Shown here in pieces: positions 20,488-53,150 of a DNA stretch of 64,000 nucleotides. The position numbers were made by a program, and so were the translations under genes. The stretch is from contig DATION010000005.1 in assembly GCA_035473115.1 (NCBI GenBank), positions 86,339 to 150,338 on the forward strand, read 5' to 3'. This DNA comes from Candidatus Udaeobacter sp. Lineage in GTDB: Bacteria; Patescibacteriota; Patescibacteriia; Magasanikbacterales; GWA2-37-8. The notes beneath the pieces were generated by a model. That model did no database searches and had not been told where the DNA came from. It saw only the letters and a list, made by a program, of their open reading frames with translations. Position 1 is the first letter of the stretch. Each line of letters opens with the position of its first letter.

Positions 20488-20604
20488 ATGGTCTTTTTCT
20501 TTTTTAAATTTATATTTTTAACAACAATTTATAAAACAATAATAAGGTTCTGCTTATAAATTAGACGATAATTTATAAGTTCAAAGCACGTCTTAGTGCT
20601 TCTT

Positions 20605-23637
<3,033 letters not shown>

Positions 23638-24080
23638 GCACGACTAAAGCACTAAAAAGTGCTTCTCCCATTTGCGGATTTCCTATTAAGAATCCGCGGG
23701 ATTAATCGCGTTTGTGTAGTATTACCTACATACCCTATTATTGTTTATAAATTGTCAACGTACACGCGTTGCAACCTTTACTTTCATTTCAATCAAAGTG
23801 AGTCCCGAAGGAGAATCCCATTGGGAAAATCTGCCTTACGGTTCTCGCTTCGCCTGAAATGATTTTTATTTTATCACTTTATAAAACACAACGACCGCCT
23901 GCAAGCGGTCTCTCAAAACTGAGGATTTAACCACTCGGACTAACTGAGTAAAAATTTAATCTGTTTTATCATTTTGATATTTTAGAATAAAATTTATTTA
24001 CCCAGAGGTCCAAGCGATACTTTTTTTGTATTCTACTTGTGGACTTGGTTCGTAATTAAATTACGATTTTGCGTAGGAGC

Positions 24081-50200: not shown

Positions 50201-50757
50201 TCCGGATTAACATAATAATGACCTTGAGAAGGACCGTTAATGCCATAAGCCCAGTACAGACCGGTATTAAACCACTGCGGAGAGTTTGGGGCCACGCGTT
50301 GAGAAATTAACATGAAAACTAATTCATCATAAAAAACTTGCGCGTCTTGAGCACTGGCAAAATAACCATATTTTTCTCCCCAATAACGCCAGGTACCGGC
50401 CAAACGATGAGCTACTTGCTTCATACTGTGTTCCGGACCAAGCACCGGCTTGCCGTCAGCGGTAAGCTGCGGAGTGCCGTCGGCATTGTATTGAGGTACG
50501 CCGGCTTTGCGGAAATATTTTTGCGCCAAAATATCGGTGGCCACCTGAGTCCAAGTGTTAGGCACTTCAACTTCTTTCATTTCGAACACAATCTTACCAT
50601 TTGGTTCGCGAATTACCGATGAACGCAGTTCATAGATAAACATATCAAACGGACTAACACCTTCTTTAGTAAAAAGCCTAGAAAAACGCAACCCTTCCGG
50701 AGAGTATTTAAAATTATTGTCTAAGATAAATGTCTTGGTTGCAAGGGCGGTGTTCAT
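47281..50757 (-). CDS. nrdJ: Class II (adenosylcobalamin-dependent) ribonucleotide reductase with a C-terminal Cys-rich zinc ribbon
   Basis: 1158-aa RNR class II architecture. C-terminal CGTCGH...CYKCLNCGSTTGC. Confidence 0.85.
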   Translation of the reverse strand: MNTALATKTFILDNNFKYSPEGLRFSRLFTKEGVSPFDMFIYELRSSVIREPNGKIVFEMKEVEVPNTWTQVATDILAQKYFRKAGVPQYNADGTPQLTADGKPVLGPEHSMKQVAHRLAGTWRYWGEKYGYFASAQDAQVFYDELVFMLISQRVAPNSPQWFNTGLYWAYGINGPSQGHYYVNPDNGVLTAATDSYSHPQPHACFIQSVKDDLVNTGGIMDLWVREARLFKYGSGTGTNFSNLRGAGEKLSGGGTSSGLMSWLRIGDRAAGAIKSGGTTRRAAKMVVLNVDHPDIEEFIDWKVKEERKVAALIAAGYESSYEGEAYQTVSGQNSNNSIRVTQSYLEAVENNKDWNLTGRKDGKIIKTVPAKYLWDKIASAAWACADPGVQFDTNINDWHTCPKSGSINASNPCSEYMFLDDTACNLASINLGHYYDTENLSFDVEDFKYTTRVWTVVLEISILMAQFPSPEIAQNSYLFRTLGLGYANIGSVLMTAGIPYDSPEAMAFAATITAIMTAESYATSAEMAKFLGAFAEYSKNREDMLRVMRNHRRAAFNADDEEYEGLAVKPMGINPEFVPAYLLVAARESWNKALEMGEQYGYRNAQTTLLAPTGTIGLLMDCATTGVEPDFALVKFKKLAGGGYFKIVNEAVPVALRVMGYTETQINDIINYLRGHATLKNAPYINHQTLQTKGFTAEDLDKVEKALSKVFELAFAFNVWTLGEDCLTRLGFSSEQYNDPNFNLLSALGFNNEEILAANEFVCGAMTIEGAPHLRKEHYAVFDTANKNGKKGQRYIHFLGHIRMMAAVQPFLSGAISKTINMPNEATLEDVKTAYVASWKLALKAMALYRDGSKLSQPLSAKSDKKKEDKTEAKSTEKEVVENKIDSAVATAKEEITKGYSLSTKNETVVNQLVDDGRAVMKYNHDGSDNGNRIYVHGEQRKLPYKRSGITIKTKVAGQSVFLRAGEYPDGKLGEIFIDMHKEGAAFRSMLNLFAISISTGLQYGVPLEEYVEKFTFTRFEPSGMTDHPNVKLCTSIIDFVFRVLGMEYLGRTDFVQVKPMGIQKNKAEQVDQMAAKASGQNVMPLGDQVEKKIETQTSLPNMPKIESGKDVSADAVGKQLSSMMGDAPACGTCGHITIRSGSCYKCLNCGSTTGCS

Positions 50758-50931
50758 ATTCGAATTGAATTAAATAAAATTAACTTAATTTACCTTAATT
50801 AGCTTTTTTGCTTCTTAATTTATGAGATCCCGCTAAGCGGGACGAGTTAATGAGAGTATTTCCCCTTTAGCCTATATCGTAGTATAAATTACTTTTAACC
50901 ACAAGATATAGTAAAAAAGAGGGCAAAAGAC

Positions 50932-51020
50932 ATTATACCACTTCTAAAAAAATTACGCCAAATGGCCCGGTTTTGCTTTAAATAAAAGAAAAAAAAGTAA
51001 GGATGTTTAGTTATCCACAC
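50932..51020. repeat. About 90 bp direct repeat, copy 1; carries a minus-strand extended -10 promoter (TGGTATAAT) about 165 nt upstream of nrdJ
   Basis: Near-identical to 51954..52041 apart from about 10 nt, read directly. Two NrdR-box-like palindromic half-sites lie just downstream at 50870-50914. Confidence 0.55.
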
Positions 51021-51354
51021 CTAGTTTTTTTGAAAGCATAACGCTATAAATAACAAAAAAATAATCGAGCCTAAAATTAATTCTATTATACTTAAATTTA
51101 TCCCCACTTAATCCACTTGTTAGAATTCACGCCGGCTGGTATAATTATTTTACTAAAGGAGAACTTCAAAAAATTATAAATTGGGTCAAATCTAGGTGCC
51201 ATGTTAGCCAGATTTAAAAATGAAATATTCAGCATTTAATACTAAGGGTGTTTTTTTGTTGTCTATAAACTATATTGACAGAAAAAGATATAACTGCTAA
51301 GATGCCGCCTTACTTAAAAGTAATAAAAAACCCGTATTTAGTAAGCAAAGTTTG

Positions 51355-51456
51355 TACCCCCGCCGGGACTTGAACCCGGATCGTATCTTCAGAAAGATAG
51401 GCTGTCACGCTTCGGATTACAAATCCGATGTTCTATCCAAATTGAACTACGAGGGC
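51355..51456 (-). tRNA. Atypical tRNA-like gene: Thr anticodon (TGT) with a 32-nt variable region containing a 6-bp hairpin; G1-U72
   Basis: Perfect D-arm (GTTC/GAAC), anticodon arm (TCGGA-TTTGTAA-TCCGA) and T-arm (CCGGG-TTCAAGT-CCCGG). The acceptor stem has two G-U pairs. The 32-nt variable arm is incompatible with a canonical tRNA-Thr. Confidence 0.45.
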
Positions 51457-51553
51457 ACAAATACTGCTTACTAAGCACAGGTACTAAAAAACCAGTGTTT
51501 AAAAAACAGTTATTTTCTCGAAAGGTAGCTGTAAGGTTTCACACCTACAGGAT

Positions 51554-51583
51554 CAAGCGTTAGCGCGCTTGGTTCTTTTTTTT
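51554..51583 (+). terminator. Plus-strand Rho-independent terminator (caagcg-ttagcg-cgcttg + T8) inside the non-coding segment
   Basis: GC hairpin followed by TTCTTTTTTTTT. Confidence 0.5.
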
Positions 51584-51953
51584 ACGTGGGAAGAAACGAA
51601 ACCACTTGCTTTTGGCGAATACGAGTTTACCGTTGCGTTTTACCGCATTACAAATAATTGAACCGTCTTCTGCTTGAAAGCAGAACTGATGCGTAAGCAT
51701 AGTTTAGGGATTCTCCTTTCTGGGCAATACAGCCACAATTGAATTTTCCCTACAGCTACCTTTTAAAAAAACCACCAAAAGCGTCTACCCTGCCTACGTC
51801 TGTTTTTGACAGCCGTCAGCAGTGTTCTAGCACCTGACGAGCCTTTCGGTTCGGCAAGGTAGCACTTTTGATGGTCTATCCATTCTGTGCAAAGTGGATA
51901 TTTATTGACGCTTTCCCTTGGCTAGAAACAAGGAAATAAATTTTTCAATATTA

Positions 51954-52041
51954 TTATACCACTTCTAAAAAAATTACGCCAAATGGCCCGGTTTTGCTTT
52001 AAATAAAAGAAAAAAAACTGCCAGCAATTAGTTATCCACAC
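51954..52041. repeat. About 90 bp direct repeat, copy 2 (same extended -10 promoter, pointing into the non-coding segment)
   Basis: See copy 1. Confidence 0.55.
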
Positions 52042-52115
52042 CATCAAAAAATTTGAATTAATAATTTTAATTTATAATTGGACTTTGTTATTTTTCTATC
52101 GTATAATTTACCCGT

Positions 52116-53150
52116 ATGCAAAACCCAATTGAAGAAGAACAATCCCGCCTAACTACCCCAGAAGCTGACTCCGAAGAAAATGTCTTAGAAGTTACTTTAC
52201 GCCCGCAAAAGCTGGGTGATTTTATCGGCCAAGCGCAAATAAAACAAAATTTGGGGATCTCTATGGAAGCCGCCACGCAGCGCGGTGAAATGCTGGAACA
52301 TATTTTACTCTACGGTAATCCGGGTTTGGGAAAAACTACTCTGGCCAACATCATCGCCCGCGAAATGAACAGTAATATAAAAATCACTTCCGGCCCGGCC
52401 TTGGAAAAAGTTGGCGACTTAGCGGCTATACTATCTAATTTGCAAAACGGAGAAATTTTATTTATCGATGAAATCCACCGCTTAAACAAAACTATTGAAG
52501 AAGTTTTATATCCCGCCTTAGAAGATTATTCACTGGATATAATAATCGGCAAAGGCCCGGCTGCGCGTACTATTCGCATGCCTTTATCAAAATTTACTCT
52601 CATTGGTGCCACGACTAAGATTGGATTAATCTCTGCGCCACTGCGCGATCGTTTTGGCCATACTTTTCATTTGGATTTTTACGAACATGGTGATATTGAA
52701 ACTATACTTTTACGCAATGCCAAAATTTTAAATATGGATATAGAACCAGAAGCTGCGGCCCTGGTTGCCGCTCGCTCCCGCCGCACTCCGCGTATTGCCA
52801 ATCGTTTGCTTAAACGCGTCCGTGATTTTGCCCAAGTACGCCATAATGGTAAAATAGATAAAACTATTGCCGACAAAGCTTTAAACATGTTGGCTATCGA
52901 TCAGCTTGGACTTGATGAAATTGATCGCCGCTTACTGGACACTTTAATAAATAAATTTAGCGGCGGCCCGGCCGGATTAAATACCCTGGCTGCCGCTATC
53001 AGTGAAGAAATGGATACGATTGAAACTATTTATGAACCATTTCTGCTGCAAATGGGATTTTTGGAACGCACTCCGCGCGGACGCAAAGCTACTCCGGCTG
53101 CCTATGCCCATCTTGGCTATAACGCGCCAAAAAAACAAACTTTAATTTAA
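52116..53150 (+). CDS. ruvB: Holliday junction branch migration ATPase RuvB
   Basis: Walker A GNPGLGKTTLA and AAA+ motifs. Confidence 0.93.
   Translation: MQNPIEEEQSRLTTPEADSEENVLEVTLRPQKLGDFIGQAQIKQNLGISMEAATQRGEMLEHILLYGNPGLGKTTLANIIAREMNSNIKITSGPALEKVGDLAAILSNLQNGEILFIDEIHRLNKTIEEVLYPALEDYSLDIIIGKGPAARTIRMPLSKFTLIGATTKIGLISAPLRDRFGHTFHLDFYEHGDIETILLRNAKILNMDIEPEAAALVAARSRRTPRIANRLLKRVRDFAQVRHNGKIDKTIADKALNMLAIDQLGLDEIDRRLLDTLINKFSGGPAGLNTLAAAISEEMDTIETIYEPFLLQMGFLERTPRGRKATPAAYAHLGYNAPKKQTLI

Follow-up and report, generated by a model that had tools for sequence, protein, structure and literature searches.

The 64-kb window analysed here (the whole 64,000-nt stretch of contig DATION010000005.1, assembly GCA_035473115.1) carries on its minus strand, at 51355-51456, a tRNA gene with the threonine anticodon UGU, hereafter tRNA(UGU), whose variable region has grown to 32 nt and holds a hairpin of its own. 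That it is a genuine gene of tRNA-Thr type, expanded in its variable region, is secure as a structural claim. The label that fits best is that of a structural variant of tRNA, which belongs to the family by score and core and yet misses the variable-region length of both class I and class II. From its sequence and setting we tentatively favour, with somewhat less than even confidence, the reading that it is an acquired accessory tRNA-Thr, functional and probably expressed, in which the extra arm is tolerated.

The gene was matched end to end and with exact coordinates by the Rfam tRNA model RF00005 (model positions 1-71) at 59.3 bits (gathering score, 29; E = 2.8e-10 over all 64 kb). The window's eight ordinary tRNAs score 56.3-69.4 bits, and the gene falls in this range despite the penalty for the insertion. 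From the Rfam alignment and the minimum free energy (MFE) fold, the acceptor stem is GCCCUCG/CGGGGGU, with G1·U72 and U5·G68, the D stem is GUUC/GAAC (4 bp), and the anticodon arm UCGGA-UUUGUAA-UCCGA (anticodon UGU) and the T arm CCGGG-UUCAAGU-CCCGG are perfect. A preliminary description of this DNA, made from the letters alone, had proposed a tRNA-like gene with a Thr (UGU) anticodon, a hairpin in a 32-nt variable region, perfect D, anticodon and T arms and two acceptor G-U pairs including G1-U72, and the score, alignment and fold bear it out on each of these features. The nucleotides for tertiary contacts, read from the alignment, are complete (U8, A14, A15/U48, G18, G19, A21, G53-C61, U54, U55, C56, A58, U33 and A37), and the Thr-type elements C2-G71, G35, U36 and A37 are present (anticodon loop UUUGUAA). 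C2-G71 is kept while pair 1-72 is G·U; the expectation of G1-C72 is an E. coli rule that may not fit the threonyl-tRNA synthetase (ThrRS) of Patescibacteria. The cloverleaf has a 7/4/5/5 arrangement with A73 and CCA is not encoded (the next bases are CAA), a trait shared with several of the window's native tRNAs. In the genes of the window, about 26 of every 1000 codons are ACA or ACG, so there is a use for a UGU tRNA.

ARAGORN was silent on the native gene and called tRNA-Thr(tgt) once the variable region was trimmed to 26 nt or less; the miss is due to the ~26-nt length limit of the program, which this variable region exceeds, and not to a defect of the gene. Nor did the gene turn out to be a regular class II tRNA read with another anticodon arm, a possibility raised in the preliminary description.

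Variable region and comparable tRNAs

The variable region is made up of AGCGUGACAGCC-UAUCUU-UCUG-AAGAUA-CGAU, and its 32 nt fall outside both length classes (4-5 nt for class I, roughly 10-24 nt for class II). Its hairpin occurs once in the window and is preceded by 10 unpaired nucleotides, a single-stranded tether. Deletion of 27 nt between G45 and G46 gave, in ARAGORN, a canonical 76-nt class-I tRNA-Thr with the variable loop AGGAU, which fits the AGGNY loops (AGGUU or AGGCC) that L008, L020 and L034 have in their ordinary tRNA-Thr(UGU) genes. The insertion lies exactly at 45/46 and pairs with itself, and chance placement at this site would be roughly 1-in-15. Two candidate features of the region were rejected: a kink-turn, for which on inspection the G·A pairs could not be placed against a proper C stem, and pairing of the tether UGACAGCC with GGCUGUCA of an upstream structure (module A, below), which was not significant (equalled by 12 of 300 shuffles for the tether and by 103 of 300 for the whole region).

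Canonical tRNA-Thr(UGU) shares with this gene the cloverleaf, C2-G71, A37 and the AGG..U ends of the variable loop, and the anticodon arm of a Myxococcota tRNA-Thr (in L020) is identical; what differs here is the 27 extra nucleotides at 45/46, G1·U72, a 26-bp helix between leader and trailer, and the strain-specific insertion in which the gene is located. Class II tRNAs (Leu, Ser, Tyr, Sec) likewise have an additional stem-loop at 45/46, but the variable regions of the window's two tRNA-Leu genes are only ~13-14 nt long, and class II has a 3-bp D stem and an arm that begins within about 2 nt of position 45. A class II tRNA of Leu, Ser or Tyr type was excluded by the UGU anticodon, the 4-bp D stem and the 10 unpaired nucleotides before the hairpin.

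The anticodon arm and T loop, separated by a gap of 18-48 nt, were sought in 185,579 species genomes, and 26 matches were obtained, none of them related: 22 class-II-shaped tRNA(UGU) genes, three artefacts (adjacent genes or runs of N) and one match in L016. The 22 species with a class-II-shaped tRNA(UGU) belong to Acetobacteraceae, Succinivibrionaceae, Eremiobacterota/Vulcanimicrobiota, Thermoplasmatales and others and include two archaea; the genes (among L001-L026) are 83-92 nt long and are called tRNA-Thr by ARAGORN, some with a Thr-type acceptor stem (GCCGAC...). With a gap of 27-57 nt, nine matches were obtained in JGI metagenomes, and the sole comparable tRNA among them is an identical class-I tRNA(UGU) in two soil metagenomes (Ga0302222 and Ga0302324; L033:1201-1299 and L030:157-255). 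It shares with the present gene the class-I core, UGU, C2-G71, a ~30-nt variable region with a hairpin and the miss by ARAGORN (Rfam, 51.8 bits), but its sequence is unrelated, its 8-bp hairpin begins directly behind position 44, its discriminator is G73, its CCA is encoded, and a long leader-trailer helix is missing. An RNase P RNA gene lies 1.6 kb from this soil tRNA, in a high-GC bacterium. The remaining JGI matches that were inspected were rejected, L035 as an archaeal intron-containing tRNA whose intron matches by chance, and L027, L029/L032 and L031 as not being tRNAs. In view of the 22 species and of the 8-bp variable-region hairpin in L030/L033, the earlier statement that such a variable region is unprecedented for tRNA-Thr was too strong.

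No relative of the tRNA or of the insert that carries it was found in scans of IMG/VR, and BLAST with the whole insert gave generic tRNA-arm matches only in GenBank phages and no match in PLSDB plasmids. Spurious open reading frames (ORFs) over related tRNAs or inserts were also sought, and only the 46-aa ORF of the source metagenome-assembled genome (MAG) itself was recovered. Judged from the sequences searched, the combination of a class-I core, a 10-nt tether and a small hairpin is a singleton architecture.

Three further known systems come close. Allo-tRNAs and irregular soil tRNAs (Mukai et al. 2017, PMC5389517) and nematode nev-tRNAs (PMC3333845) resemble the present gene in combining a long arm with an anticodon outside the set normal for class II, and they are often accessory genes. 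In allo-tRNAs the acceptor/T arrangement is 8/4 or 9/3, the discriminator is G73 or U73 and the D arm is Sec-like (PMC5389517); an allo-tRNA was excluded here by the 7/5 arrangement, A73 and the class-I core. Annotation tools overlook tRNA genes of Patescibacteria whose anticodon loop is interrupted by a self-splicing group I intron (PMC13011429); the phylum and the concealment from ARAGORN by inserted sequence are the same, but those introns are hundreds of nucleotides long, the canonical length for group I, whereas the insertion here has 27 nt, lies in the variable region and contains no ribozyme. Engineered tRNAs with hairpin aptamers on a long variable arm stay active in translation in E. 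coli (PMC7590224); they too bear a variable-arm hairpin, but they are synthetic and built on an allo-tRNA chassis, and the hairpin caps a pre-existing long arm.

Leader-trailer helix, upstream modules and the nrdJ-ruvB spacer

The leader (26 nt) pairs with the discriminator and the first 25 nt downstream of the gene, which lengthens the acceptor stem to a helix of ~33 bp. This helix, the two structured modules upstream of the gene and the absence of the segment from relatives go beyond the preliminary description. The leader-trailer duplex was computed at -24.8 kcal/mol, against -7.9 ± 2.8 kcal/mol for shuffles, whereas in the other eight tRNAs of the window leader and trailer paired no better than their own shuffles. 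The tRNA is the last of three modules with long stems, and the 631-nt stretch from promoter to U-tract that contains them folds at -212.8 kcal/mol (z = -9.9) on the minus strand, somewhat more stably than on the plus strand (-199.9 kcal/mol); for module B, z was -4.1 on the minus and -5.3 on the plus strand. Inverted repeats fold equally on both strands, and the high z-score is therefore no proof of an RNA function. At E <= 10 over 50700-52200, modules A and B had no Rfam family, and no intron, ribozyme, 6S, SRP, RNase P, ROOL, GOLLD or HEARO was found. U-tracts stand behind both modules, between the promoter and the tRNA.

A hypothetical protein of 46 aa (HSR89378.1, VLK22_03230) is annotated inside module B, on the minus strand at 51560-51700; it has no homologue among 5.8 billion proteins and is probably a spurious gene call. 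On the plus strand, a strong promoter-like site lies at 51117-51145 (TTGTTA and, after 17 nt, TATAAT with a TG before it); a terminator-like hairpin, likewise strong, lies at 51549-51576, followed by T8 (to 51585).

The segment lies between nrdJ, encoding a class II ribonucleotide reductase (minus strand), and ruvB (plus strand). RuvB homologues place the organism among Candidatus Magasanikbacteria (Patescibacteria). The source MAG is named 'Candidatus Udaeobacter sp.' (Verrucomicrobiota) at NCBI, probably through an error of binning or taxonomy, because all close RuvB relatives and the gene order are those of Magasanikbacteria/Patescibacteria. The locus was compared with the nrdJ-ruvB loci of relatives whose RuvB is 87-95% identical (L037-L047). 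The gene pair is conserved in them, with a spacer of 285-313 bp in L038, L042/L043, L044 and L045 and a single copy of the repeat described below in L038, L042, L044 and L045; no part of the insert or the tRNA was found in any related locus by blastn or nhmmer. In L037, L039/L040 and L047 the same spacer holds unrelated small ORFs (207, 126 and 142 aa) without a Pfam match, and this differing cargo marks the spacer as a variable insertion spot in the lineage.

Each relative has one copy of an nrdJ promoter on the minus strand (TTGGCR, 18 nt, TGnTATAAT), with NrdR-box-like palindromes downstream and a perfect DnaA box upstream, an arrangement that suggests control of nrdJ by DnaA and NrdR. In the window this region is present twice. 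The two copies contain a perfect 65-nt direct repeat (50932-50996 and 51953-52017), with similarity reaching ~90 bp at 91% identity, and both have the promoter-like TTGGCG-18-TATAAT preceded by TG on the minus strand; the site in copy 2 is identical to the conserved promoter and is the only one found upstream of the modules and the tRNA. The DnaA box TTATCCACA has only two perfect occurrences in the 64 kb, one per repeat copy. A replication origin was rejected, the boxes being repeat copies of the box conserved upstream of nrdJ and the GC skew showing no change of sign. The copies differ completely in a 10-nt block, which is also variable among the relatives; this argues against a simple tandem duplication and favours recombination with DNA that bore its own copy of the region.

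No ORF of at least 50 aa was found from 50757 to 52088, between nrdJ and ruvB, and hence no recombinase or transposase of the segment's own. With the 65-nt repeat, the promoter motifs and this lack of ORFs, the earlier placement of the tRNA in a repeat-bounded non-coding segment downstream of the copy-2 promoter holds. Flanking repeats together with empty sites in the relatives are the marks of an integrated element or genomic islet; searches of the window, the related loci, phages, plasmids and IMG/VR gave no second copy of the insert. A miniature inverted-repeat transposable element with a target-site duplication around the tRNA module was considered and rejected, as the resemblance between the flanks (family D5; 79% over 28 nt) lies in AT-rich sequence and could have arisen by chance. 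An independent assembly of SRR9656165 at k = 31 was 100% identical to the window from 51988 on and stopped exactly 30 nt (k-1) inside repeat copy 2; a break of this kind supports a true repeat and does not by itself settle between a chromosomal position and a small circle or second strain.

Two further observations concern the surroundings. Genes of the bAvd / 23S_rRNA_IVP family, a family that accompanies diversity-generating retroelements, lie a few genes from ruvB in relatives (L039:11950-12324 and L041:2144-2467) and have no counterpart in the window. The 23S rRNA match of the window (20604-23642, minus strand) spans 3,039 nt against a model of 2,925 positions, ~114 nt extra.

Coordinates of the tRNA gene, its parts and the surrounding features in the window
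Feature	Position	Strand	Basis or remark
tRNA gene, anticodon UGU (Thr)	51355..51456	-	Rfam 59.3 bits, full length; MFE cloverleaf; ARAGORN tRNA-Thr(tgt) after trimming of the variable region
Variable region, 32 nt, AGCGUGACAGCCUAUCUUUCUGAAGAUACGAU	51380..51411	-	Insert columns of the Rfam alignment; sequence read directly
Extra-arm hairpin UAUCUU-UCUG-AAGAUA, 6 bp, 4-nt loop	51384..51399	-	MFE and centroid fold
Inferred 27-nt insertion between G45 and G46	51383..51409	-	ARAGORN on deletion construct; comparison with canonical tRNA-Thr(UGU)
5' leader arm of the ~26-bp helix continuing the acceptor stem	51457..51482	-	Inverted repeat I1
3' trailer arm of the leader-trailer helix	51330..51354	-	Discriminator A73 (51355) pairs with U-1
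U6 tract directly 3' of the leader-trailer helix	51325..51330	-	Sequence reading; terminator-like 3' end
Module A, ~105-nt structure with ~24-bp closing stem, then U7	51771..51876	-	Part of the 631-nt fold; no Rfam match
Module B, ~260-nt multibranched structure with 5+16-bp closing stem, then U-rich runs	51510..51770	-	Inverted repeat I7
Repeat copy 1, native nrdJ promoter and DnaA box (51011-51019)	50932..51021	-	NrdR-box-like palindromes downstream
Repeat copy 2, promoter TTGGCG-18-TATAAT preceded by TG (51953-51982) and perfect DnaA box (52032-52040)	51953..52042	-	
ORF-less insertion, 931 bp	51022..51952	.	Only in this genome among the recovered loci

Favoured reading and rival explanations

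Under the reading of an acquired accessory tRNA-Thr, the variable loop would have grown from 5 to 32 nt through a 27-nt insertion at 45/46, the sole site at which an extra arm is normally tolerated, and the tRNA gene would be cargo of the 931-bp segment, outside the conserved core genome. Recombination within the nrdJ promoter would have brought the segment into the nrdJ-ruvB spacer, with the result that a promoter copy now flanks it at either end. The upstream copy would then drive a structured minus-strand transcript of ~0.6 kb comprising module A, module B and the tRNA, in which the tRNA would be borne on the ~33-bp helix formed by acceptor stem and leader-trailer pairing, followed by the U-tract. 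Release by a nuclease specific for double strands, such as RNase III, would be followed by RNase P, RNase Z and CCA addition, and the mature tRNA of ~105 nt would be charged by ThrRS and decode ACA and ACG, its extra arm pointing into solvent like the arms of class II.

In favour of this course of events are the undamaged core, a self-pairing insertion at a tolerated site and the Thr-type elements. Hairpin-tagged long-arm tRNAs that are active in translation (PMC7590224) offer an analogy that also speaks for it, as do the demand of ACA and ACG codons, the upstream promoter copy, the dedicated helix with its U-tract and the more stable fold of the minus strand. Several points weigh against it. 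No homologue was found in the genome, metagenome, IMG/VR, related-locus or protein searches, and there is consequently no evidence from conservation or covariation. Relatives without the locus must decode ACA with another gene, and the copy is therefore probably redundant. No promoter closer to the tRNA than that of repeat copy 2 was found, the U-tracts of modules A and B could end transcription before the tRNA is reached, and the plus-strand promoter-like site and terminator-like hairpin suggest an antisense transcript of ~430 nt across the tRNA. In E. coli, G1-C72 is a determinant for ThrRS, and the pair here is G1·U72; moreover, class II synthetases such as ThrRS approach the tRNA from the variable-loop side, where an arm of 27 nt might clash. 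We know of no ordinary bacterial tRNA that is made with a 26-bp extension of its acceptor stem, and such an extension would suit a tRNA-like module in a larger RNA, or the inverted repeats of mobile DNA, at least as well.

The gene could instead be a neutral passenger or young pseudogene, an extra copy of tRNA-Thr that already contained a small palindromic insertion on arrival or took it up later, is unused, and looks intact only because the event is recent. This explanation is unlikely but has to be taken seriously: the gene is a singleton without relatives, the copy is probably redundant given the relatives that lack the locus, the acceptor stem is weakened by G1·U72 and U5·G68, and the flanking repeats are 100% identical over 65 nt, from which it follows that the whole arrangement is young. 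It does not account as readily for a self-pairing insertion at the only tolerated site, for a core without any other defect, or for a dedicated helix, U-tract and complete promoter copy that resemble an expression unit. Alternatively, the cloverleaf might have no part in translation and be the 3' domain of a larger noncoding RNA (modules A, B and C), serving as a signal for processing or stability, with RNase P/Z cleavage setting the ends as in the MALAT1-mascRNA pair, or as a handle for a protein. We consider this rather unlikely, though still a serious rival; the preliminary description had likewise listed a tRNA-derived regulatory RNA, as well as a pseudogene, among its options. Three consecutive modules with long stems (z = -9.9), a tRNA inside a 33-bp helix unlike the other tRNAs of the window, an extra hairpin that could be a binding site, and an NCBI record that annotates here only a probably spurious 46-aa ORF without homologues would all fit; a processing signal, however, has no need of a sense anticodon, U33 and A37 in a flawless anticodon arm, and no family, homologue or covariation stands behind modules A and B. 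A wider proposal, which we put forward as speculation and think doubtful, is that the 931-bp segment may represent a new kind of Patescibacteria RNA cassette, ORF-less and promoter-carrying, that integrates by recombination within a housekeeping promoter and expresses a structured RNA of three modules, the last of them a naturally tagged tRNA; a protein or a pairing RNA might bind its arm and, for instance, protect, sequester or redirect the tRNA.

The context, as distinct from the tRNA, might be an artefact, the 1,021-bp unit of insert and one repeat being a small circular or tandem element, or coming from a co-occurring strain, and having been threaded in by the assembler via the 65-mer. The unit is bounded by exact repeats, the break in the k = 31 assembly of SRR9656165 shows only two right-hand contexts of the repeat, and the repeat copies differ in the 10-nt block as two alleles would; against this, 65 nt is an unusual k-mer size for an assembler, the junction of the insert with repeat copy 2 must exist in some molecule, and the tRNA itself is real either way. 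We regard such an artefact as improbable. Recoding, which the preliminary description had entertained on the grounds that the long arm might recruit another synthetase (SerRS, LeuRS or TyrRS), so that ACA and ACG would occasionally be read as a different amino acid, is very improbable. It is true that bacterial tRNA-Leu likewise has A73 and A15-U48, that 22 species have a class-II-shaped tRNA(UGU), and that tRNAs with a long variable arm and a non-cognate anticodon are known (allo-tRNAs, PMC5389517; nev-tRNAs, PMC3333845). The elements C2-G71, G35, U36 and A37 are nonetheless of Thr type, while A73, the 4-bp D stem of class-I type and the 10-nt tether are unlike class II. SerRS recognizes G73 and an arm that starts at position 45; A73 in place of G73, together with C2-G71, speaks against it, the anticodon has no G34 as TyrRS requires, and the orientation of the hairpin is undefined because 10 unpaired nucleotides separate it from position 45. 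Hardly credible, finally, is removal of the 27 nt after transcription to yield a normal 76-nt tRNA-Thr. Precise removal would restore the canonical AGGAU variable loop, and Patescibacteria tRNA genes do carry self-splicing introns that conceal them from annotation (PMC13011429), but those are group I introns of hundreds of nucleotides in the anticodon loop. An intron-like insertion, another suggestion of the preliminary description, is not borne out: 27 nt is far below the size of group I or II, no intron family matched at E <= 10, and a bulge-helix-bulge cannot be drawn, since on inspection GAUCCGG, the would-be start of the 3' exon, has no complement at the 5' end of the insert. We know of no bacterial enzyme that would cut out such a segment.

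Implications for tRNA structure and annotation

The finding is genuine and mildly unusual, and for the present it is a one-off. If the gene is not functional, it is no more than an odd tRNA copy of recent origin at an intergenic site that varies. If it is functional, a class-I tRNA with a 27-nt arm on a flexible tether would pass ThrRS, EF-Tu and the ribosome, and would be a natural counterpart of the design principle that synthetic biologists have built by hand in aptamer-tagged tRNAs. The gene also points to a blind spot of annotation, in that ARAGORN drops tRNAs with a variable region of over ~26 nt; in the reduced genomes of Patescibacteria, apparently missing tRNAs are read as biology, yet genes with long variable regions would escape notice.

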